Positions 23,757 to 33,271 of a stretch of DNA of 64,000 nucleotides are shown here, in pieces. Origin of the DNA: a bacterium CG_4_10_14_0_2_um_filter_33_32 (lineage in GTDB: Bacteria; Patescibacteriota; CPR2_A; CG2-30-33-46); the NCBI GenBank assembly GCA_002792735.1, contig PFOW01000055.1, positions 273 through 64,272 on the forward strand, in the 5' to 3' direction. Every line of letters starts with the position of its first letter. The stretch's first letter is position 1. The notes below the pieces were generated by a model. The model saw only the letters and a list, made by a program, of their open reading frames with translations. It had not been told where the DNA came from and made no database searches. Made by a program: the position numbers and the translations under genes.

Positions 23757-24158
23757 TTATGGAACCTCCTCTTCTTGCCAACTGTCTTGAACTACCTTTC
23801 CATCATTATCAACTGAAACTATAACTTTTATTCTTTTTTTTACGTCATCAACTTGGCTTGAAGAAATTATGGTTGTTTTCCCTGATATTGGCTGATTGCG
23901 CTCAACTGTAATTGTAGCAGAACCTCCAGAAAGCTGCAAAACATAACCAGAGCTCTGAAAGTTCTTATTTCTGGTTACCATTACTAAACCATCTCTCGCC
24001 CCTGCTTCTGCCATAGAAAGAGCTTGTCTGGCCTTTCTATCATTATTGCTTATATTCAGCTCACCAAAAGAAACTGCACCCAAGGTTAAACCTATAACTA
24101 ATAATATACTAGTAACCACTATCGTTGTTATAAGCAATGCTGACCCTTTATTATCCAT
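23757..24158 (-). CDS. PilX-like minor pilin/pilus assembly protein
   Basis: N-terminus MDNKGSALLITTIVVTSILLVIGLTLGAVSFGE resembles PilX-type N-termini (GSALIvaLi.l.vLtllgvs). Confidence 0.35.
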   Translation of the reverse strand: MDNKGSALLITTIVVTSILLVIGLTLGAVSFGELNISNNDRKARQALSMAEAGARDGLVMVTRNKNFQSSGYVLQLSGGSATITVERNQPISGKTTIISSSQVDDVKKRIKVIVSVDNDGKVVQDSWQEEEVP

Positions 24159-24168
24159 AAATCTATTC

Positions 24169-24708
24169 CTATTTAAGAGAAACTGTTGTTTGGTAATCCT
24201 GAAAAAGAATAATTTCTGTTCCTTTTTTATACTCTATACGAAAATTGATTTGAACTGTGGGCTTTGAACCGGTATTTTTTACCAATCTAAAGTAAGGAAA
24301 ATCACTACCTGTGTTTCTTTTTTTAAAAGATACCGCTTTTGTTGTTAGCTCAGTAGTCTCTAATAAATTGGCGCCTTCATAAATCTTAATAGTGAGAACA
24401 CCCGAATTTATCTCATAAACAGTATCTTTGCCATCGCTCATATGAAGCGATAAAGAATCTGATGTAGGAGAACCTTCGGTGGGCTGATTAACGCTTTCTG
24501 CCTTACCTATGTCCTGATTTAATTTTTCCAGAATAAAACGGCCATTCTGCTGAATTTCAGTAGAAGCAGAGCTTCTATTAGATGCCTTTAGAACCGGATA
24601 AACCATACTCACAACAGCGATTGTAACAAAACCCAAAATAGCTACGTATATTACAAGCTCAATTAAAGTTACCCCTCGTTCCATTGTTTCATTGTTCCAT
24701 TGTTTCAT
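24169..24708 (-). CDS. type IV pseudopilin (PilV/PilW-like)
   Basis: …MERG|VTLIELVIYVAILGFVTIAVV is a canonical prepilin cleavage/methylation motif. Confidence 0.75.
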   Translation of the reverse strand: MKQWNNETMERGVTLIELVIYVAILGFVTIAVVSMVYPVLKASNRSSASTEIQQNGRFILEKLNQDIGKAESVNQPTEGSPTSDSLSLHMSDGKDTVYEINSGVLTIKIYEGANLLETTELTTKAVSFKKRNTGSDFPYFRLVKNTGSKPTVQINFRIEYKKGTEIILFQDYQTTVSLK

Positions 24709-24715
24709 TGTTCCC
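24678..24715. repeat. short tandem duplication (2 x 16 nt AACAATGAAACAATGG) covering the pseudopilin start/leader
   Basis: Plus strand CCATTGTTTCATTGTTCCATTGTTTCATTGTTCC. It encodes the leader MKQWNNETME and creates two in-frame ATGs. Confidence 0.5.
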
Positions 24716-24760
24716 TAACTCATTATTACATCATTATATTGTTAAATTGTTATCTCTACC

Positions 24761-24788
24761 CGTCATTCCCGCGCAAGCGGGAATCCAG
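24761..24788. repeat. left inverted repeat / hairpin flanking the GIY-YIG gene
   Basis: CGTCATTCCCGCGCAAGCGGGAATCCAG has an 8-bp stem ATTCCCGC/GCGGGAAT with a GCAA loop. Confidence 0.7.
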
Positions 24789-24791
24789 ATC

Positions 24792-25082
24792 TTACTTTGT
24801 TATTTCTTCGTATAAATCTTCCCAGGCTAGATTTTTCTTTTCAATAAGCCTTAACTTCCAATTCCTTCTCCACTTCTTAATTTGCTTTTCTCTTATAATA
24901 GCTTGTTCAATATTCCCATGTTCTTCAAAATAAACCAATATATGTGTTTGATACTTTTTGGAAAACCCTTCAACTAAATTATTTTTATGTTGATAAACTC
25001 TTCCTATTAAATCGGAAGTTACTCCGGTATATAAAGTCCCATTTCTTTTATTTGCCATTATATAAATGTAAGACTTTTTCAT
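24792..25082 (-). CDS. GIY-YIG nuclease superfamily small protein (YhbQ/UPF0213-like)
   Basis: 96 aa. SYIYIMANKRNGTLYTGVTSDLIGRVYQH carries the GIY…YIG motifs and a conserved Arg and Glu downstream. Confidence 0.75.
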   Translation of the reverse strand: MKKSYIYIMANKRNGTLYTGVTSDLIGRVYQHKNNLVEGFSKKYQTHILVYFEEHGNIEQAIIREKQIKKWRRNWKLRLIEKKNLAWEDLYEEITK

Positions 25083-25094
25083 AATGTTATTTTG

Positions 25095-25122
25095 CTGGAT
25101 TCCTGCCTTCGCAGGAATGACG
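25095..25122. repeat. right inverted repeat / hairpin flanking the GIY-YIG gene
   Basis: CTGGATTCCTGCCTTCGCAGGAATGACG is the reverse complement of the left repeat. The stem changes C·G to T·A compensatorily (ATTCCTGC/GCAGGAAT) and the loop is CTTC. GAATGAC-like direct repeats follow at 25111-25160. Confidence 0.7.
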
Positions 25123-25189
25123 AAAGTTCAGGAATGACAGAAGGAAGACAGAAATGACTATGGGGCACTGTATCAATCTAATAATTGAT

Positions 25190-26032
25190 TCATGGTGAAT
25201 AATTTATTATTACTTTTCCAACAACTGGAGTGCTGTTAGGGTCAGAAGTACTTAAAAGCACTTTATATTTTATATACCTTTCATTATTATGAGTAACGCT
25301 AATTGCTTCTCCTGGCACAGTATAATAGGTAGAAGCAGTTCCGTCTGAACCGACAAAATTCCATGGACCCGAAGAGTTATCAGAAGAAGCAAGCTGTAAT
25401 CTTATATTAGTATTTTCAGGTTTTGAAATAACTTCCCACCATATTGAATTATAAGCAACGCTTACCCCTGTATCATAAACAGAGGAGAAAATCTCTCCAT
25501 TTTCTGCATAATTACCGCTAGGTAATGAATATTTATAAGTTAATATGCATTTGGCGCCAATCAAAGAAACACTGGCTCCGTTGAGATTATAATCAAGCTT
25601 ATATCTATATTGACCGGGATTTGTAAGCATTGGTGGTGAAAATGCGGTTTTGGCATCATAAAGAATAGAAAAATGGGAAGAGTTAGAGTTGGTTTTAACA
25701 TTAAAACTTTTGACATAACTTGCAGAATTAGGATCAACAGTAGGATTGATTTGATAGGCGGTTAAAGTGATAGATAATTGATTTTCGTTTGTCTCCCTAC
25801 TAACACCCGAGAATTCAATAAAAGCACTTTTCATCTCCGGATCTCTTTCGGAAATAAAAACCTCAAATTCAAAAGAACCGCTATCCACTGAATTAGTAAC
25901 ATTTTCCCTCTGCCCAACAAAAAACTTGGTAGTTTTAAGAAGATTAACAGATGAAGCGTTAACCTGAAATGGGAAAAATGTAGTAACAATAAGCACTACA
26001 ATAATAAAATTATTAAATATTTTCTTAAACAA
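25190..26032 (-). CDS. secreted protein paralogous to the C-terminal domain of the adjacent giant protein
   Basis: Signal peptide MFKKIFNNFIIVVLIVTTFFPFQVNA. LKTTKFFVGQRE…EMKSAFIEFSGVS aligns with LKTVELFIGQDT…TIKSAFFEITGVS of the 2404-aa protein. Both end …YSP*. Confidence 0.7.
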   Translation of the reverse strand: MFKKIFNNFIIVVLIVTTFFPFQVNASSVNLLKTTKFFVGQRENVTNSVDSGSFEFEVFISERDPEMKSAFIEFSGVSRETNENQLSITLTAYQINPTVDPNSASYVKSFNVKTNSNSSHFSILYDAKTAFSPPMLTNPGQYRYKLDYNLNGASVSLIGAKCILTYKYSLPSGNYAENGEIFSSVYDTGVSVAYNSIWWEVISKPENTNIRLQLASSDNSSGPWNFVGSDGTASTYYTVPGEAISVTHNNERYIKYKVLLSTSDPNSTPVVGKVIINYSP

Positions 26033-26056: not shown

Positions 26057-29000
26057 TTATGGCGAATAAGTATATGTTAATGTAAGCTTTGCTCCCCAAA
26101 GAGATACATCACCACCATTTCCAACGATGTTAAGATGATAAGCATCTGTTGCCGGATATGTTCCACTATCATTTATAATCCCATAAAAATAAGAAGTAGC
26201 ATCATAATAAGTCTTAAGATAAGAATTGTTTCCAGTGCTTAGATTAAATACTTTTTGATTTGCACTATCTATATCAGTTGTTATTACTAAGGGGTTTGCA
26301 GTTCCTGAAACGCCAGTGATTTCGAAAAAGGCTGATTTAATGGTCGGGTTGCCTTCTGGTATATAGATATTAAATGCAAACCCGCCCGGTACGCCGTTCC
26401 CGCTTGTTCTAGTGTCTGTATCTTGTCCAATAAATAACTCTACTGTTTTTAACGGCCTAGTTGCCAAAGTTACAAAAGAACCATTTTCAGCACAATGTGT
26501 TGGACTATCAACGCTGTTACCACAAATTGCTTCATTTCCTGCCTTATCGATTGCTTTTACTCTGAAATAATATGTTGTTGAGGGTGACAAACCTGTTATA
26601 GTAACAGCTTGCGCCCCAACGCTATAACCACTAGTTGGGTTAGGCTGCAAGGTTCCAGGCCAACTACCTGTTGTATTGTATTCTACTTGTTTTGTAGCGT
26701 CTTCATTAACACTCCAATTAATAGTTGCGGAAACATCAGAAACACCGGATGTAGAAATACCGGTTATAGTAGGAGCTACTGTATCACAATAAAAGTCTTT
26801 GGAATTTACAGGATCACCGCCAAAATTAACCCATGCGCTATCGCCGTTTGCGTTTTTAACTCTAATCCGCCAATGATATTCATTACCATTGACTACCGTA
26901 GCCTGCACCCAGCCATCAACTGTAGTTTTTGGTGTAGGATAACTCACTGACGAACCTAGAATAAGACCATTACCATCAAAAGGAACTCCGTTAGGCTTAA
27001 GCTCAACTTCTGGCGTTAAATTTCCTGCTACCGCAGAATACATATCTGTGTGAAACCAAATATTGGTCTGGTTAATTCCAGATTCAGGTGATAAAGCTGC
27101 GCCACCTTGAGTTTTAGATTGAATAAGATCAGATGGATCAGCCGGAACATTGCTTAAAATAGTAAACCCATTTGATAAAGTACCAACACCCGCTTGGTTC
27201 TTAACATTTACACTATACTGACCTGTTGGCTTACCAGAAAGATTAACCACACATCTTATCTGTATTGCGCTATCCTCATATACTGTATCAGCATTGATCT
27301 GGGTGGGACCTGATAAATAACACTTTGGACTAGATAAATTTACAAAATTATCTCCTGTAATAGTTAGTTGCAAAGCTGTGTCATTTTGTGTTCCTTCTGC
27401 TGGATCTACTCCAGTTACGGTTGGGACAGATGCTGTTATAAAGAAACCAGATGTGCTACCGTCACCCCATTCTGCAACATAACCTTCTGGATTAGTAACA
27501 GTTAATTTCCAATAGCCTATTGTTTTATACACAATATTATAAGCAGCTGACATTGATGTTGCCGATGAAACAGTTATATCGCCATTTGCAGCTACAATAT
27601 CTGACTGACCGGTTTTCACTAACCTTGAATCTGTACTAGCTGTTTTTGGCTGGAAACCTTTACCTGTTATAGTCACCGTAACAGGATTGCTATTTTCAGC
27701 AGTATTAGGATTAATGCCTGTTATTTTTGGTTTAATATCAAAACGAGTATGTGACGCATCTAAGTTGCTTGTTTTACTGTTGGCTGTTACCTGAATTCTG
27801 GCAGCATAATTCACAGGACCACTAGAAGCACCGCTTGGTATATATACCCCTATCTGATTTTCTGCCCAACCATTAAAATCGCCATTTGGGGTTAATAATG
27901 GATTGCCATTAAAATCATTAAACTTAATATTATAAGAAGCAGACGATCTATTCCCAGCTCCTGGATCAGGCCTAAAATGATCACCATCAATAGCTACTAA
28001 GGTTCCGCCTCCAGCGAATCCGCCGGCAACCCCTGTTGTACATCCACTACCACTGCATGTAAATCCTGTTACTCTAGGTAAATAATCAAAAGAATAATTA
28101 TTACTGTTGACTGAATCACTATGCCTTCTTGCGATCAAAGAAACTGAATAACCTGGATCATTTGGCGCTGTTGTTTCAATGGTAGTTGTTAACCAACTTC
28201 CTATTGATGCAACAGTTGATCCAAACATAATTCTGCTGTTTGCTCCTTGTGTACCAAAATGATTACCGTTAATCCTTAAAGTATCCTCATATCTAGCGCC
28301 AGTTACTCCATTCTCAACAGTAATACCATAACCGGATGCTGTAACATCAACTGAAGTTATTTTAGGTAAACAAGTAAAAGACCAATTATTAGTATTTTTA
28401 TCTGGTGCAGGATTTGTTCTTGTAACAACAATGTTGCCAGCCTCATTACCGTCAGGTATAACAGGAACTGCAACGTTTGTAATTTGAGTTCCGCCGGATG
28501 CTCCATAAGATCCGTTTATAGTTGCCGATTCTCCATTTATTACTACACTTCCATTACTGCCAAAATGATCTCCTATTATAGTAATAATATCGCCTTGATA
28601 CGAAGAATTTTGAGTTACGGCATTATTCAAGCTTGTTATTCTTGGAAGTATTAATAGGGTTTTATCATTATTAGATGTTTTAGTATCATTCCTAGTCACA
28701 ACAATCGCGACTGTAATGCCTGAATCATTTGGTAAAGCAAATGATATTGAAGTGGCTCCCCATGTCAAACCGGCTGTAACATCAGTGGTGCCTACAGTAA
28801 CTTTTCCTCCACCTTGAACAGCGCCGAAATGATCACCGGAAATTGTTATAGAATCCCCTACACGTGCTTCTGAAGTTACGGATGTAACCTTAGGAAGAAT
28901 TATCAAAGTGTAATTATTATTACTTGTTTTTGCATCATCTCTAGTAACAACAACTGCCACAGTAATACCCGAATCATTAGGTAAATTTAAAGAAACAGAA

Positions 29001-32000
29001 GTAGTAGACCACGTTAGACCAGAGCTTACATCAGTTGTGCCTATTGTAACTTTACCTGCCCCCTGGGTGGCGCCAAAGTGATTTCCTGAAATTGTTATAG
29101 AATCTCCTACGCGCGCTTCTGAATTTACAGAAGTAATCTGTGGTAAAATCAAAATTGTTTTATCGGTATTTGATGTTTTAGTATCATCCCTGGTTACTTT
29201 AACAGCAACCGTATAACCTGCATCATTTTGGATTTTAACTTGGATAGAATTAGCTCCCCACGATACATAATCACCAGAAGGAACATCAGTTGTGCCAAAG
29301 GTAACTTTACCTGTACCACGAACGGCACCAAAGTGATTACCTGTTAATGTGATCGTATCACCTACCCTTCCTTCTGTTACACTTATACTGGAAAGTTGAG
29401 GAAGAATAAGTAACGTCACATCATTATTACTTGTTTTTAAATCACTATGTCTTGTTGCAACAACTGCTACAGTTGTTCCTGAATCATTGGGAACAGTGGC
29501 AGTAATAGAAGTTTCTGACCATGTACCAATAGTGCCGTCTGTAGAACCGAAAGTTATTTTACTACTAGCACCCTGATTGCCAAAATGATCTCCGGATACT
29601 GTTACAGAACCGCCTACACGAGATTCAGAAGTAACAGAAGTGACTCTTGGTAAAATTAACATTGTCTTATCATTATTAGAATCTTTTAAATCACTATGCC
29701 GTCTTGCAACAACAGCTACGGTATAACTAGGATCATTAGGAACAGTAGCAGTTATAGACCCTTCATTCCAAGTACCTATACCTGCAACAGTAGAGCCTAC
29801 CGTTACCTGGCTTGAAGCACCCTGAGTGCCAAAGTGGTCTCCGGTTAAAGTAATAGTACCTCCTACGCGAGCCTCAGCAGTAACACTGGCAATTCGAGGC
29901 AAAAGGAGAATACTCTTGTCAGTGTTGGATGATTTAGTATCATCTCTGGTTACTTTCACTGCTACCGTATAACCAGAGTCATTTTGAACTTTTACTTGTA
30001 TAGAAGAATCGCCCCAAGAAACATGATCTCCTGCAGGCGCATTAGTTGAACCAAAAGTTACATAACCTGCACCACGAACTGCGCCAAAATGATTTCCAGA
30101 AATAGTTATAGTATCACCAACTCTAGCTTCTGTTACGGATATGCCGGTAACTTGAGGCATAATACTTACGGTTTTATCATTATTAGAAGTTTTTAAGTCT
30201 CCATCTCTTGTTGTTACAACAGCTATTGTTCCGCCTGAATCATTGGGAACTTTTACCTGAAGAGAATTATCTCCCCAAGATACATAATCGCCTCCTGCAA
30301 CATCAGTTGTCCCCATAGTTACTTTTCCATTAGTTCCTTTAGCTGCGCCAAAGTGATTACCTGCAATAGTTACAGTATCACCAACTAGAACATCAGTTGG
30401 AACAATAGACGTTATCTGGGGAAGTATAAGTATCGTTTTATCTGTATTAGATATCTTTGTATCATCCCTGGTTACTTTAATAGCTAGATTGTAAGAAGAA
30501 TCATTTTGAATTTTAACTTGAATAGTTCCGGCATTCCAAGATACATAATCGCCGGATGGAGCAATTATAGAACCAAAAGTAACCGTACCTGCGCCCCGCA
30601 CTGCGCCAAAGTGATTTCCGTTAACTGTAATAGTATCACCCACCCTTCCTTCAGTCTGAGTAATAGAAGTGATTTGGGGCAAAATAGTAAATGTTATATT
30701 GTTATTTGAGGTATCACCACCATTTCTAGTTACTTGAACAGCAACTGTTGTAGCAGCATCATTCGGTACTGTAACTGTTATTGAAGTATCTCCCCATAAG
30801 GTTACTGGTGCTGAAGTTGAGCCGAGCATAACGCTTCCTGTTCCTTGGACTCCCCCAAAATGATCTCCCTGAATAGTAAGCAAATCACCCACCCTGCCTT
30901 CTGTAGGCGATAGTGAAGTGGTAACTCTTGGCAAAATCTTAAAAGCATAACTGTTTGAAGTTTTGGAATCAGAAGACCTTGTTACAACAAAATTTAAAGA
31001 CTGTCCAGAACTTATGGTAGCCGGAATAGTAAAGTTTGAGATCGAAGTATCAGCATAAGTAACCCCCGTAGATGAATTCTGTCCATCTAGTGTTATTGCC
31101 CCGGCAGGACCAAAGTGATCGCCGTTTATAACAACAACATCTCCAATTCTAGCACCTGTGCCTGTTACCGGATTAGTTGAAGTAATCCTTGGCAATATCT
31201 TAAACGTGATACCGTTTGATGTTTTAGTGCCATAAGTCGCATTAGTGGTTATAGTTACTGACCCATCTATTGTTCCAGTAAGAGGTATTGCAACTCCTGT
31301 TATTGAAGTATCGCCCCATGTTCCAGTGGCTGACGCGCCGTTTATGGAGATTGTTCCGGCAGATACACCTAAATGATTACCGTTAATTGTAATAGTATCA
31401 CCCACTCTTGCTTCTGTTACTGACAGAGAAGTGATCTGCGGCAAAACAGTAAAACCATAAACCGGCGAATTTTGAACTGCCCCAACCGTAATAGACATCC
31501 CGCCGGTATTTATAGTGGCATCAGAAGGAACCGATACTCCAGAGATTGAAGTGTTTGTCCAAGTAACACCAGGGGTAGATTCAGTAATTGCAGTTCCGTT
31601 ATTATTAATGTAAAGGGTTCCTGCTGTTCCAAAACCATATCCGGAAATTGTTATAGTTGCTCCCTGAAGAGCCTCTGTTGGTGTTGGCGCAATGATTTTA
31701 GGCCGCACAGTAAATGAACTTGCATAAGTAATTGCTGTTGCTCCAAATATAGCGTCTGTAATTGTTAAATTAACATTCCAGACTCCCCCGTAAGCAGCTG
31801 TTGGACCAGGCGTTGCATTATTTAAATTAAATGAACCGCCAGTAATGCTATTTTTATTAGATAAAGAAAAACTAGATCCCGTAACTGTTTGAGTGCCTAA
31901 AGTTAAGGTTACAGAAGAAACAGATTGGAAACCTGATCCGGTTAATGAAATACCTGAATATGTTGACCCTGAATCTCCGCTTGTAGTTGAAATTGCCGTA

Positions 32001-33271
32001 ACTTTTGGCAAAATTTGGAAGTTTTGGTTATTATTGGAAGTTTTGGTTATGGGAGCTGTTATTGAGACGATAACTGTTCCAGAAATTGTATCCGGCACTG
32101 TAAAGGTAACTGAAGTTTCAGTGCTGCCTCCTCCAATTGTTGCTGATACTCCATTAATTGTCATAGTCCTTGTTGTGCCTAAATGATCTCCTGTGATTGT
32201 GGCTGTAACATCCCCCACTGTTTTACCAGCACCAACCCCTGTTATATTTGGATAAACATAAAAAGTCAGAAGCGAGGTATCTGCTACACCTCCAGCCGTT
32301 ACTAAAAGACCATTATTAGTTACACCACCATAAGACATACAAGCAGCCGGTATAGTAAAAACAATTTGTGTATCACTCCAAGAACTTATATCTGCATCCG
32401 GTATTTGATACCCACCAGAACCTCCGATTTTTATATTATCAGTAACCGTTGATCGATTTCCTGCCCCAGGATCAGCACCAAAACCAGTTCCTGTAATTGT
32501 TATTTGCTGTAAGGAACGACCTCCGTCGGTTATTGTCCCATCAGTATTATTTGTAAAAGATGTTGCATCTGGATTAGCAACTGCCAAAGTATAATCAATA
32601 GCAAAAACAAGGGTATCCATTCTTACTTCGGTTGATGCAGAATTGTTATTCCCAGAATTAACATCAGAGCGCATCCTTATAGTTACGTTTATATTAGAAG
32701 CCTGATAAGCAGAACTTACTGTTTTTGCTCCATCAACATCTCTAGTAACCCAAGAACTTGAAGTCGGATCAAATTCTGTTTCTAAGTCAACTAAGCCATC
32801 AAACACACCTGTTGTATCGACACCATCATAAATTTTCAGGCCTACTGATTGAGTTGATGCATGTGTTTCTTGAAAAAGCTTAACATCAAAGCTTCCATTA
32901 ACATTATTTACAGTAGCACCTGCGGGTACTCCCATATCTTCCCATGTAAGAGTCTTTTTAAAATAACCTAAATTCTTTTTATTCCTAGCAGTAACTTTAG
33001 CAAAAAGAGAACCAGAAGGATTACCGTCTGTTCCTAAATAGCCTTGTGTACAAGTACCCGTACATGATTCATCAACATAAGTAAAACCTTCGATGCTAGT
33101 AGCAAAGTTAACCGTATAATTTTGAACTGCTGCACGAACAGGTGTTACTGATTGTCTAAACAAAAATGGTACAAAAAAAGAACCTAAAAATCCAAAAATA
33201 ATTAATAAAATCGATATTTTGGTAAAATATCTTAAAAAATGCTTTTTATTTTTCTTTATAAACAAAACCAT
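26057..33271 (-). CDS. giant (2404 aa) secreted/cell-surface protein with ~19 tandem IPT/TIG-like Ig-fold repeats, an FN3 domain and a distinct C-terminal domain
   Basis: N-terminal signal-anchor. The repeated ~85-aa unit is ILPQITSI…EGRVGDTITxNGNHFGAxRGxGxVTFG…VKVxNDxxxxVAVKVTRDDTKxSN. It has FN3-like INWSVNE…YYFRVKAIDKAGNE. It is a single uninterrupted ORF. Confidence 0.85.
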   Translation of the reverse strand: MVLFIKKNKKHFLRYFTKISILLIIFGFLGSFFVPFLFRQSVTPVRAAVQNYTVNFATSIEGFTYVDESCTGTCTQGYLGTDGNPSGSLFAKVTARNKKNLGYFKKTLTWEDMGVPAGATVNNVNGSFDVKLFQETHASTQSVGLKIYDGVDTTGVFDGLVDLETEFDPTSSSWVTRDVDGAKTVSSAYQASNINVTIRMRSDVNSGNNNSASTEVRMDTLVFAIDYTLAVANPDATSFTNNTDGTITDGGRSLQQITITGTGFGADPGAGNRSTVTDNIKIGGSGGYQIPDADISSWSDTQIVFTIPAACMSYGGVTNNGLLVTAGGVADTSLLTFYVYPNITGVGAGKTVGDVTATITGDHLGTTRTMTINGVSATIGGGSTETSVTFTVPDTISGTVIVSITAPITKTSNNNQNFQILPKVTAISTTSGDSGSTYSGISLTGSGFQSVSSVTLTLGTQTVTGSSFSLSNKNSITGGSFNLNNATPGPTAAYGGVWNVNLTITDAIFGATAITYASSFTVRPKIIAPTPTEALQGATITISGYGFGTAGTLYINNNGTAITESTPGVTWTNTSISGVSVPSDATINTGGMSITVGAVQNSPVYGFTVLPQITSLSVTEARVGDTITINGNHLGVSAGTISINGASATGTWGDTSITGVAIPLTGTIDGSVTITTNATYGTKTSNGITFKILPRITSTNPVTGTGARIGDVVVINGDHFGPAGAITLDGQNSSTGVTYADTSISNFTIPATISSGQSLNFVVTRSSDSKTSNSYAFKILPRVTTSLSPTEGRVGDLLTIQGDHFGGVQGTGSVMLGSTSAPVTLWGDTSITVTVPNDAATTVAVQVTRNGGDTSNNNITFTILPQITSITQTEGRVGDTITVNGNHFGAVRGAGTVTFGSIIAPSGDYVSWNAGTIQVKIQNDSSYNLAIKVTRDDTKISNTDKTILILPQITSIVPTDVLVGDTVTIAGNHFGAAKGTNGKVTMGTTDVAGGDYVSWGDNSLQVKVPNDSGGTIAVVTTRDGDLKTSNNDKTVSIMPQVTGISVTEARVGDTITISGNHFGAVRGAGYVTFGSTNAPAGDHVSWGDSSIQVKVQNDSGYTVAVKVTRDDTKSSNTDKSILLLPRIASVTAEARVGGTITLTGDHFGTQGASSQVTVGSTVAGIGTWNEGSITATVPNDPSYTVAVVARRHSDLKDSNNDKTMLILPRVTSVTSESRVGGSVTVSGDHFGNQGASSKITFGSTDGTIGTWSETSITATVPNDSGTTVAVVATRHSDLKTSNNDVTLLILPQLSSISVTEGRVGDTITLTGNHFGAVRGTGKVTFGTTDVPSGDYVSWGANSIQVKIQNDAGYTVAVKVTRDDTKTSNTDKTILILPQITSVNSEARVGDSITISGNHFGATQGAGKVTIGTTDVSSGLTWSTTSVSLNLPNDSGITVAVVVTRDDAKTSNNNYTLIILPKVTSVTSEARVGDSITISGDHFGAVQGGGKVTVGTTDVTAGLTWGATSISFALPNDSGITVAIVVTRNDTKTSNNDKTLLILPRITSLNNAVTQNSSYQGDIITIIGDHFGSNGSVVINGESATINGSYGASGGTQITNVAVPVIPDGNEAGNIVVTRTNPAPDKNTNNWSFTCLPKITSVDVTASGYGITVENGVTGARYEDTLRINGNHFGTQGANSRIMFGSTVASIGSWLTTTIETTAPNDPGYSVSLIARRHSDSVNSNNYSFDYLPRVTGFTCSGSGCTTGVAGGFAGGGTLVAIDGDHFRPDPGAGNRSSASYNIKFNDFNGNPLLTPNGDFNGWAENQIGVYIPSGASSGPVNYAARIQVTANSKTSNLDASHTRFDIKPKITGINPNTAENSNPVTVTITGKGFQPKTASTDSRLVKTGQSDIVAANGDITVSSATSMSAAYNIVYKTIGYWKLTVTNPEGYVAEWGDGSTSGFFITASVPTVTGVDPAEGTQNDTALQLTITGDNFVNLSSPKCYLSGPTQINADTVYEDSAIQIRCVVNLSGKPTGQYSVNVKNQAGVGTLSNGFTILSNVPADPSDLIQSKTQGGAALSPESGINQTNIWFHTDMYSAVAGNLTPEVELKPNGVPFDGNGLILGSSVSYPTPKTTVDGWVQATVVNGNEYHWRIRVKNANGDSAWVNFGGDPVNSKDFYCDTVAPTITGISTSGVSDVSATINWSVNEDATKQVEYNTTGSWPGTLQPNPTSGYSVGAQAVTITGLSPSTTYYFRVKAIDKAGNEAICGNSVDSPTHCAENGSFVTLATRPLKTVELFIGQDTDTRTSGNGVPGGFAFNIYIPEGNPTIKSAFFEITGVSGTANPLVITTDIDSANQKVFNLSTGNNSYLKTYYDATSYFYGIINDSGTYPATDAYHLNIVGNGGDVSLWGAKLTLTYTYSP

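Follow-up and report, generated by a model that had tools for sequence, protein, structure and literature searches.

The NTS repeat and the gene of the Ssn nuclease were described as a repeat-gene pair in 2025 (Chenal et al., Nat Commun 16:2388; PMC11893778). The Ssn family (cd10448) comprises single-strand DNA nucleases, which bind the NTS hairpin exclusively in ssDNA and cleave a short distance upstream, and SsnA shows no RNA binding (PMC11893778). The NTS-ssn-NTS layout was also published there, with SRM repeats found on both sides of the gene for 42% of the homologs (Chenal et al., 2025).

Here, we describe positions 24761-25122 of a 64-kb window, which is the whole stretch of DNA analyzed (64,000 nucleotides). 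This 362-bp segment consists of one gene and two inverted 28-nt hairpin repeats in the order NTS-ssn-NTS, and judging from its sequence it is very probably a cassette, in which the gene of an Ssn-family nuclease lies between two inverted copies of the hairpin that the enzyme recognizes. Since the enzyme family and the layout have already been published (PMC11893778), the cassette represents a further example, in an uncultured groundwater bacterium. It shares with the SsnA/NTS system of Neisseria the 28-nt hairpin, a single-domain GIY-YIG protein of about 95 aa with the catalytic Tyr/Tyr/Glu, and the NTS-gene-NTS layout. However, a Neisseria genome contains hundreds of NTS, whereas only two flanking copies are present in 64 kb here, and consequently a genome-wide role of NTS, such as the modulation of transformation, is not evident. 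In addition, the host is a CPR/Patescibacteria-type MAG, a group not mentioned in PMC11893778, where RefSeq representative genomes were surveyed. The Neisseria system comes with measured activity and a transformation phenotype, whereas the Ssn of the window is known from its sequence.

Some other systems resemble the cassette in part. In RAYT/REP (REPIN) systems, a single-copy nuclease gene is likewise accompanied by inverted short hairpin repeats, which are recognized as ssDNA and can proliferate. However, RAYTs belong to the HUH Y1 enzymes, which pass through a covalent 5'-phosphotyrosine intermediate and are able to rejoin DNA, whereas Ssn is a hydrolytic GIY-YIG enzyme of an unrelated fold. 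In Azospirillum, ssn is flanked by REPIN-like NTS doublets. IS200/IS605 elements are also small, with subterminal hairpins recognized in ssDNA and without target-site duplications. Their TnpA Y1 transposase cuts both ends on the same strand, whereas the inverted hairpins of the ssn cassette would place the cleavable sites on opposite strands, for an enzyme of another class; moreover, IS200/IS605 elements are insertion sequences, whereas the ssn cassette is a candidate for mobility. The core of the window hairpins, ATTCC(C/T)-N8-(G/A)GGAAT, is identical or nearly identical to the neisserial dRS3 motif ATTCCCN8GGGAAT (dRS3/NIME). The 20-bp palindrome alone defines dRS3, which is a phage integration target in Neisseria, whereas the window copies have additional oriented flanks, CGTC...CCAG, that define NTS.

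Layout of the Cassette and its Hairpins

An earlier note on this DNA had described a 96-aa GIY-YIG ORF between two inverted 28-nt hairpin repeats, and all of these elements are indeed present (Table 1). The ORF is the sole one in the cassette, which contains no HUH/Y1 transposase. The ATG of ssn follows the upstream NTS after 12 nt, and the downstream NTS follows the stop codon after 3 nt. Both spacers are typical, since among 91 cassettes the distance is usually 4-14 nt from NTS to the start codon and 0-10 nt from the stop codon to NTS.

Table 1. Features of the NTS-ssn-NTS cassette and its border, in window coordinates
Feature	Position	Strand	Description
NTS hairpin 5' of ssn	25095..25122	-	CGTCATTCCTGCGAAGGCAGGAATCCAG; forward on the gene strand; T·A stem variant
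ssn gene	24792..25082	-	96-aa single-domain GIY-YIG nuclease, Ssn family
NTS hairpin 3' of ssn	24761..24788	+	CGTCATTCCCGCGCAAGCGGGAATCCAG; forward on the + strand, inverted relative to the gene
Two degenerate NTS 5' half-arm copies	25129..25158	-	Outside the cassette

The pattern CGTCATTCCYGCNNNNGCRGGAATCCAG has two exact matches in the 64-kb window, which are the two hairpins of Table 1, and zero matches in 100 shuffles with up to 3 mismatches allowed. No third NTS copy was found within the 64 kb even at 7 mismatches, so that NTS is not a dispersed, multi-copy repeat in the window. The search for further copies that the earlier note had proposed thus yielded only these two here, together with NTS and ssn in other genomes, as shown below.

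In PMC11893778, an NTS has no more than one mismatch to the Neisseria consensus CGTCATTCCCGCGMAVGCGGGAATCYRG or matches the SRM pattern. The downstream copy has 0 mismatches to the consensus and also fits the SRM pattern. The upstream copy has 2 mismatches, which constitute one compensated base pair, does not match the SRM regular expression, and therefore lies outside those search patterns. The change is compensatory as previously noted, with C to T on the 5' arm paired with G to A on the 3' arm (CGTCATTCCCGCGCAAGCGGGAATCCAG versus CGTCATTCCTGCGAAGGCAGGAATCCAG), and the loops read GCAA and CTTC on the + strand, again as previously given. Each copy folds into an 8-bp stem with a 4-nt loop, and the ssDNA free energies are -9.0 kcal/mol for the downstream and -7.7 kcal/mol for the upstream copy (z = -3.7 and -3.5, respectively). 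Both copies have the form CGTC-ATTCC...GGAAT-CCAG and keep the GTC before the palindrome, which is critical for cutting, as well as the C after it, which is critical for binding (PMC11893778). The T·A copy may nevertheless be a poorer substrate, since a change of the stem sequence can abolish activity even if the structure is kept (PMC11893778).

The Ssn Protein

The 96-aa protein matches the Pfam profile GIY-YIG (PF01541) with an E-value of 4.8e-15, and residues 3-76 cover 76 of the 78 profile positions. The N. gonorrhoeae SsnA ortholog (94 aa), whose source chromosome is mislabelled as a plasmid, was taken as the reference, with the residues Y6, Y17, and E64 as in PMC11893778. BLASTP against this ortholog gave 53% identity and 78% similarity in a gapless alignment of 92 aa (E = 3e-40), and tblastn gave an E-value of 5e-29 (7.3-Gb database). 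The protein is therefore an Ssn homolog by the relaxed criterion of PMC11893778 (E < 1e-10 over >75% of the length). The strict criterion is at least 60% identity to N. meningitidis SsnA, and the 53% to the gonococcal ortholog lies below this value, which is a search stringency and no family boundary. The predicted catalytic residues are Y7, Y18, and E65, plus R28, and in the gapless alignment the first three correspond to Y6, Y17, and E64 of the Neisseria SsnA. Across 39 homologs, the catalytic Tyr/Tyr/Glu, R28, H32, and the C-terminal W71, R73, W75, and W87 are invariant, and the window protein carries all of the 24 invariant family positions. The AF2 model (pLDDT 89.6) predicts one compact domain, and an additional DNA-binding domain is absent. 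The solved folds closest to it are those of GIY-YIG domains, namely the UPF0213 protein BH0048 (1ZG2), Slx1, and the N-terminal domain of UvrC, while a sequence search of the solved structures gave nothing relevant.

Could ssn then be a housekeeping gene for a DNA-damage nuclease of the YhbQ/UPF0213 type, placed between two repeats by chance? A YhbQ-like gene was among the readings offered in the earlier note, both proteins are stand-alone GIY-YIG proteins of about 100 aa, and the nearest solved fold is that of a UPF0213 protein. However, E. coli YhbQ and the window protein are 26% identical (pairwise E = 2e-6), compared with 53% for the gonococcal SsnA, which is itself also remote from YhbQ, and the match to YhbQ lacks the conserved C-terminal block KKW-R-WK-LIE-N-W-DL. 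Moreover, YhbQ is not associated with NTS repeats, whereas ssn is tightly coupled to NTS copies and is not syntenic in related CPR genomes. We therefore give this reading almost no credence.

Homing endonucleases of the I-TevI type have the GIY-YIG catalytic fold as well. They differ from Ssn in a separate DNA-binding domain and in cutting intron-less or empty dsDNA alleles. This candidate was rejected, because the window protein is a single 96-aa domain and has no match among the phage records searched. NCBIfam contains no Ssn-specific model, and the single weak match there, to the group I intron endonuclease model TIGR01453, reaches 18 bits, below its cut-off of 56. In viral contigs, a profile scan found only 4 loci.

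Cassettes in Other Genomes and Covariation of the Stem

The compact NTS-ssn-NTS architecture is conserved across more than 12 phyla. In species-representative genomes, the pattern fwdNTS-N(290-320)-revNTS has at least 122 matches, and among the 122 matches listed, 94 encode an Ssn homolog, which is of full length in 88. The close homologs in CPR genomes (about 80% identity) also have NTS, in unrelated gene contexts, and ssn is not syntenic across these related genomes. A Howlettbacteria homolog has two inverted flanking NTS copies, and a CPR2 homolog has three copies on the same strand. The NTS copies closest to the gonococcal ssnA face the other way compared with those of the window, and the outward-facing layout is thus common but not universal. 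The hairpins are nearly identical base for base between Neisseria and CPR, which argues for a horizontal spread of the gene and its sites together.

The earlier note had suggested that the base pairing is under selection, and this was borne out by the covariation of the stem position across the family. Among 384 NTS copies of other genomes, the pair is C..G in 322 and T..A in 57, while the unpaired combinations amount to 5 (C..A 2, T..G 1, and other 2). The T·A variant of the upstream window copy is therefore shared with 57 of the 384 copies elsewhere.

Such selection might also act on RNA, with the hairpins serving as terminators, insulators, or stabilizers that delimit the ssn transcript, and the compensatory change reflecting selection on RNA structure. 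The hairpins are located inside a transcribed operon and close to the coding region of ssn (12 nt upstream of its start codon and 3 nt downstream of its stop codon), and their stems are stable. However, a terminator scan found nothing at either hairpin, there is no T-run (the gene-strand sequence after the hairpin is GGGTAGAGATAAC), and no Rfam family was matched at E <= 1 in 24000-26000. Beyond the structure, the sequence itself is near-identical from Neisseria to CPR, with the unpaired flanks included, and intermediates of the G·U type, which RNA tolerates, are nearly absent (T..G 1 and C..A 2 versus T..A 57). The hairpin is recognized as ssDNA and SsnA does not bind RNA (PMC11893778). Consequently, an RNA-level role is highly improbable, and the structured RNA or hairpin-delimited regulatory cassette considered in the earlier note is not supported.

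The Pilus Locus of the Host

The host is a CPR MAG from Crystal Geyser, in which the cassette lies within a type IV pilus cluster. The upstream gene (280 aa) is paralogous to the C-terminal part of a giant protein of 2404 aa (38% identity, E = 2e-17). Downstream are a pseudopilin, whose N_methyl motif is weak, and then PilX_N, and further along PilN- and PilO-like genes, PilB (T2SSE), and PilC (T2SSF). The cassette is single-copy and invariant in position across 18 assemblies, and the neighborhood is the same in all 33 contigs examined for extra copies of the exact protein (23 for P0002 and 10 for P0001). No empty site was found in the population of this organism across the 18 assemblies. The database relatives of the neighboring 477-aa protein come only from the same population, apart from one variant (90%) on a contig of 2.3 kb, and a metagenome scan for the empty allele with the pseudopilin returned only distant proteins (31-59%). 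A promoter scan found none, with both promoter and terminator scans at the hairpins at chance level. Since only 12 nt lie between NTS and ATG and no promoter was found, we infer that ssn is expressed by read-through from the pilus operon.

Is the Cassette Mobile?

The idea of a mobile element has been raised in PMC11893778 itself. The cassette would be, or recently have been, an autonomous, IS-like element, with the NTS hairpins as its ends and the GIY-YIG nuclease as its "transposase." Such an element would have been inserted into the pilus operon, a reading that extends the main explanation and does not exclude it. Several comparisons are in line with it. The similarity between cassettes in unrelated contexts stops 0-2 nt from the outer ends of the NTS, for example between the window and the Howlettbacteria cassette (78.6% over 365 nt), between a Paceibacterota and a Saccharibacteria cassette (82.3%), and between two cassettes in one Thermodesulfobacteriota genome (82.6%). 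Such cassette-limited similarity was found in 9 of the 26 pairs at >=75% identity. In Azospirillum lipoferum 4B, the cassette is located between sufB and sufC, where four aligned relatives with flanks 90-97% identical have a spacer of 55-129 nt with neither ssn nor NTS; seven more Azospirillum records match only as two flank pieces spanning about 915 nt. In two CPR genomes, the GC content of the ssn coding sequence is 10-12% below that of the host locus. The inverted repeat stops at NTS, 0-2 nt beyond GTCATT, and outside NTS no insertion target is conserved apart from T/C at position -1. Target-site duplications are absent, as 3 direct repeats were observed in 87 cassettes against a shuffled mean of 2.5, and this absence is a trait of single-strand "peel-and-paste" elements.

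However, the same boundaries would be expected if the gene and its binding sites are under purifying selection within diverged intergenic DNA, and in many lineages the cassette is inherited syntenically. In this organism it has one copy at the same position in all 18 assemblies, with no empty allele found. In addition, GIY-YIG enzymes have no covalent DNA intermediate, so that the strand rejoining of HUH transposases is impossible for them, and the cleavable sites are on opposite strands, unlike those of IS200/IS605. The best high-identity pair (L193/L215, 96%) was downgraded as clean evidence of transfer, because it is syntenic on one side, where the left neighboring gene matches at 88%. Therefore, a cassette that is or recently was an autonomous element is possible but on balance doubtful. 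Among the three readings of the earlier note, the compact mobile or selfish element is the best supported, indirectly and by other genomes, whereas here the cassette is single-copy and fixed in the 18 assemblies. Similarly, the empty-site comparison suggested there succeeded with the filled and empty sufB/sufC sites of Azospirillum, and found none among the relatives of this organism.

New here are the occurrence of the cassette in more than 12 phyla, the family-wide covariation, the boundaries at the outer ends of NTS, and the filled and empty Azospirillum site. Together with the absent target-site duplication, these sequence patterns would support movement of the cassette as a unit. Most likely, the cassette was acquired horizontally and has become resident, with a nuclease that acts on ssDNA containing NTS. 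It is unlikely, in our estimation, that the cassette is self-mobilizing and forms a mechanistically new class, in which a GIY-YIG single-strand nuclease liberates the ends, and not a DDE, HUH, serine, or tyrosine recombinase. If so, the CPR copy would be the minimal autonomous form, with two ends, one gene, and no dispersed repeats. In a weaker variant, the placement in a pilus (DNA-uptake) operon may couple the expression of Ssn to incoming ssDNA, in an organism that would depend on scavenged DNA.

Proposed Action and Implications

By homology to the characterized enzymes of Neisseria and Wolbachia, the resident Ssn is expected to be active in this organism and would bind the NTS hairpin only in ssDNA, which may arise during replication, repair, or DNA uptake. 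The cut, which would involve Y7, Y18, E65, and Mg2+, is predicted in the NTS strand, a few nucleotides on the 5' side of the CGTC end. Since the CGTC ends of the two inverted NTS copies point outward, each strand would offer one cleavable site immediately beyond the cassette border, with predicted cut zones at about 24752-24760 (+ strand) and 25123-25131 (- strand, likewise approximate).

With this cassette, the recently described Ssn/NTS system is extended to bacteria of the candidate phyla radiation. The window cassette represents its barest state, with two flanking hairpins only in 64 kb, and could help to distinguish the unit that is ancestral or mobile from the genome-wide expansions of the repeat that came later in pathogens and symbionts. 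The sharp boundaries, the lack of target duplication, and the Azospirillum site provide the first concrete, although indirect, support for the published IS-like speculation. Natural hairpin variants, such as the one with the compensated T·A pair, are also ready test substrates for engineering the specificity of Ssn.

The GAATGAC-like direct repeats pointed out in the earlier note are real, and are located at 25129-25138 and 25149-25158. Their reverse complements, GTCATTCCTG and GTCATTTCTG, respectively, are the half-arm copies of Table 1, which precede the forward NTS by 17 and 37 nt and lie around the predicted cutting zone of Ssn. A similar half-arm "stutter" also recurs next to NTS copies in Neisseria and in other phyla.

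Identification of the cassette

The cassette within the type IV pilus cluster of the window consists of a gene, ssn, and two inverted copies of a 28-nt repeat (see the table). The earlier note had described a 96-aa GIY-YIG reading frame between inverted hairpins with a compensatory stem change, and both observations are confirmed: both repeats were matched, Pfam assigns the ORF to GIY-YIG (PF01541, E 4.8e-15), and the copies differ by C to T in one arm and G to A in the other, with pairing preserved. Each copy folds into a hairpin with 8 bp of stem and a loop of 4 nt, with free energies, for single-stranded DNA, of -9.0 and -7.7 kcal/mol (z about -3.6). A degenerate repeat pattern has exactly two matches in 64 kb and 0 in 100 shuffles. 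Neither a third repeat copy, with up to 7 mismatches, nor a second homolog of the ORF was found in the 64-kb window.

Features of the cassette and its surroundings in the window
Feature	Position	Strand	Description
Cassette, 362 bp	24761-25122	- (gene)	Hairpin, spacer, ORF, spacer, inverted hairpin
Upstream 28-nt hairpin repeat (copy 2)	25122->25095	-	CGTCATTCCTGCGAAGGCAGGAATCCAG
Spacer, upstream hairpin to ORF			12 nt
ssn	25082->24792	-	ORF of 96 codons
Spacer, ORF to downstream hairpin			3 nt
Downstream inverted repeat copy (copy 1)	24761-24788	reads on +	CGTCATTCCCGCGCAAGCGGGAATCCAG
Predicted cut zone	about 24752-24760	+	Just outside cassette
Predicted cut zone	about 25123-25131	-	Just outside cassette
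Half-arm copies	25129-25158	-	Degenerate, tandem
Paralog of C-terminus of TIG-repeat protein	25190-26032		280 aa; upstream of cassette
TIG/fn3-repeat protein	26057-33271		2404 aa; upstream of cassette
Tandem repeat, 16 nt	24678-24714		GTTCCATTGTTTCATT x2.3; overlaps pseudopilin gene start
Downstream of cassette, first			Pseudopilin, PilX_N protein
Downstream, next			Weak PilN-like and PilO-like proteins, two PAS/histidine-kinase genes
Downstream, last			PilB (T2SSE), PilC (T2SSF)

In the literature, the palindrome and GIY-YIG led to a single publication (Chenal et al., 2025; PMC11893778). It describes the 28-nt "Neisseria transformation sequence" (NTS), CGTCATTCCCGCGMAVGCGGGAATCYRG, which includes the older dRS3 palindrome, and SsnA, a 94-aa GIY-YIG protein that binds the NTS hairpin solely in single-stranded DNA, its cut falling a few nucleotides upstream; dsDNA, RNA and the reverse strand are not acted on. 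Cutting depends most on the GTC before the palindrome and binding most on the C after it, and cd10448 homologs across bacteria are flanked by such repeats, on both sides in 42% (PMC11893778). In the window, copy 1 matches exactly both the NTS consensus and SRM, the paper's broader repeat pattern, while copy 2 is an NTS with one compensated base pair (2 mismatches, SRM pattern unmatched). The GTC and the C are retained in both.

The SsnA reference used here is the gonococcal ortholog from a PLSDB chromosome (tblastn match, E 5e-29), whose 94-aa ORF has Y6, Y17 and E64 as in PMC11893778 and 16 NTS copies within 1.6 kb. It should be noted that NZ_CP119140.1 and NZ_CP119142.1, labelled plasmids in PLSDB, are actually 2.17-Mb Neisseria gonorrhoeae chromosomes, and that a second compensated stem variant, CCCACG...GTGGG, occurs around ssnA in both. 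The window protein, that is, the ssn product, shares 53% identity and 78% similarity with the gonococcal ortholog in a gap-free alignment of 92 residues (E 3e-40); this identity is below the strict 60% threshold of PMC11893778, which does not contradict Ssn membership. Its Y7, Y18 and E65 align to the SsnA catalytic residues, and all 24 residues that never vary in an alignment of 39 members are conserved in it, the C-terminal KKW-R-WK-LIE-N-W-DL block among them. The AlphaFold model is a single GIY-YIG domain (pLDDT 89.6), and the nearest solved structures are UPF0213 protein BH0048 (1ZG2), Slx1 and the UvrC N-terminal domain, with no Ssn structure among the PDB entries searched. A housekeeping YhbQ-like gene, as the earlier note alternatively proposed, is removed from consideration, because identity to E. 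coli YhbQ is only 26%, versus 53% to gonococcal SsnA.

The system is already published, and the window cassette is another Ssn/NTS case. Taking identity and predicted biochemistry together, we consider it highly probable that the window gene encodes an Ssn single-strand nuclease flanked by its own recognition hairpins. Whenever one of the two strands is exposed as single-stranded DNA, its forward NTS would fold and be bound by Ssn, and the bound strand would then be cut a few nucleotides 5' of CGTC, in the predicted zones. The gene is probably expressed by transcription reading through from the pilus operon; the hairpin ends only 12 nt before the start codon, and no outstanding promoter was found.

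The GAATGAC-like repeats that had been noticed after the cassette are present. They repeat the NTS 5' half-arm (GTCATTCCYG) in tandem and in degenerate form, ~17-20 nt apart, directly upstream of the forward NTS, and occupy the zone of expected Ssn cutting. The same "stutter" was observed at ~2880-2935 of locus L282, at four other fetched loci (L172, L182, L191 and L203) and beside gonococcal ssnA; it occurs at 13/376 NTS copies from unrelated phyla, sometimes as 2-3 tandem units. In an alternative fold, the upstream half-arm is able to pair with the NTS 3' arm.

Covariation of the stem

At the variable stem positions of 384 NTS copies from fetched genome loci, C..G occurs 322 times and T..A 57 times, versus C..A twice and T..G once. 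Because the retrieval pattern admitted all four combinations, the scarcity of unpaired and wobble combinations reflects real, family-wide covariation, in keeping with the selection on pairing that had been suggested. The T·A variant of the window is a recurrent family allele, and one Saccharibacteria cassette has T·A at both ends.

The earlier note had also read the hairpins as limits of a regulatory cassette or as structured RNA insulating a housekeeping gene. T..G is tolerable in an RNA helix, and its near absence fits RNA structure less well than it fits base-specific recognition or a hairpin of DNA. Since a T-run is absent after both window hairpins, scans for promoters and terminators do not exceed chance and Rfam gives no match for the cassette region, the RNA-insulator reading is weak.

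Distribution of the architecture

The pattern forwardNTS-N(290-320)-reverseNTS was scanned in one genome per species, and at least 120 rows matched. Among the matches listed are Alpha-, Beta-, Gamma- and Zetaproteobacteria, Rickettsia, Desulfobacterota, Planctomycetota, Nitrospirota, Chloroflexota, Bacteroidota, Acidobacteriota, Spirochaetota, Zixibacteria, Ignavibacteria, a cyanobacterium, and the Patescibacteria groups Paceibacterota and Saccharibacteria. An Ssn homolog is encoded in 94/122 of the matches listed (full length in 88/94), with 43-71% identity to the window protein. The cassettes listed are uniformly compact, with mostly 4-14 nt from NTS to start and mostly 0-10 nt from stop to NTS, and the spacers of the window are typical among them.

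In a second sample of ten plasmid or chromid homologs, chosen by protein and independent of the repeat, the forward-gene-reverse layout was found in three (Aeromonas, Shinella and Azospirillum) and NTS was not detectable at five, in line with the figures of PMC11893778. The layout is common, not universal, because the NTS copies nearest gonococcal ssnA are oppositely oriented. The window offers a modest extension, namely Ssn/NTS in hosts of the candidate phyla radiation (CPR) and a minimal two-hairpin state.

Mobility of the cassette

The resemblance of NTS-ssnA-NTS to an insertion sequence is raised in PMC11893778 only as speculation. Comparative evidence comes from CPR homologs with ~80% identity, whose gene settings are unrelated. 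The Howlettbacteria homolog, the closest of the CPR ones (Crystal Geyser; region L139 3335-5324), is flanked by two inverted NTS; a diversity-generating retroelement (bAvd with a reverse transcriptase) immediately precedes it, and a protein of >700 aa is encoded after it. The CPR2 homolog, with three same-strand NTS, lies between large surface proteins. The window and Howlettbacteria cassettes share 78.6% nucleotide similarity over 365 nt, ending 0-2 nt from the NTS outer ends. Likewise bounded by NTS ends are the similarities between Paceibacterota and Saccharibacteria cassettes (82.3%) and between two cassettes in one Thermodesulfobacteriota genome (82.6%), and the rest of the 8-kb loci is unalike in these last two pairs. 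Among cassette pairs with at least 75% identity, 9/26 are cassette-limited and the remainder syntenic.

In addition, on plasmid AZO_p3 of Azospirillum lipoferum 4B (L295 1385-1893), the cassette is inserted between sufB and sufC, with an NTS doublet (forward, ~28 nt, reverse) on each side resembling REPINs. In A. ramasamyi, A. oryzae, strain B510 and A. thermophilum (L298-L301), the flanking genes are 90-97% identical to the 4B locus, and ssn and NTS are absent from the 55-129-nt sufB-sufC spacer. Seven more Azospirillum records gave flank matches only, in two pieces spanning ~915 nt. This is a genuine filled/empty site, with the exact junction blurred by the variable spacer. No target-site duplication was found, the inverted repeat stopping at the NTS, and no conserved target sequence was found beside the cassettes. 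The GC content of the ssn coding sequence is 10-12 percentage points below that of the host locus in the two other CPR genomes, Howlettbacteria and CPR2 (L139 and L147; 33 vs 43% and 30 vs 42%), and close to the host in the window (28 vs 33%); a donor as AT-rich as the window's host could have passed the gene on.

From these comparisons we conclude that the cassette, with the NTS as its ends, apparently travels as one unit from locus to locus and from genome to genome, which is new comparative support for mobility of NTS-ssn-NTS cassettes. The mobile element of the earlier note stands to this extent. However, active mobility in this organism is argued against, since the cassette is fixed and single-copy in the host population and no empty allele of the window locus was found. 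Inheritance is also syntenic in several genera, and the highest-identity cassette pair is syntenic on one side. To our knowledge, a GIY-YIG hydrolase alone cannot rejoin DNA, which counts further against active mobility. That a single-strand nuclease of GIY-YIG type drives a mobile element, which would make it a mechanistically new class, is considered rather unlikely.

Host and genomic context

The host is a CPR-type MAG from Crystal Geyser groundwater; NCBI lists the identical protein under bacterium CG_4_10_14_0_2_um_filter_33_32, and the nearest relatives of the window protein are in CPR2 and Howlettbacteria. The window genes are nearly all on the minus strand. The gene neighbours are identical in 33 contigs read, and the cassette is essentially invariant across 18 loci compared by sequence. 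In Neisseria, SsnA affects transforming DNA, which the location in a DNA-uptake-type pilus cluster recalls; this placement is treated for now as coincidence, because other CPR copies have no pilus linkage.

We also found several minor features. The 280-aa ORF shares 38% identity (E 2e-17) with the last ~130 residues of the 2404-aa protein, and both are immediately upstream of the pilus genes. Population variants L006 and L015 have one 16-nt unit fewer at the pseudopilin start, giving a precursor of 171 aa versus 179 aa with a shorter leader peptide and a mature pilin predicted unchanged. In L016 (GCA_002784665.1, PFLT01000053.1), from the same organism, the contig breaks off 3 nt past the stop codon of ssn, right at the NTS; another occurrence of the repeat in the genome, or interference of the hairpin with assembly, may be the cause. 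On Planktothrix agardhii plasmid p1 (L289 1501-1785), an Ssn homolog with no NTS or SRM detectable nearby has a restriction-modification gene of MmeI type on one side and DISARM drmA on the other; this setting in a defence island may be worth attention.
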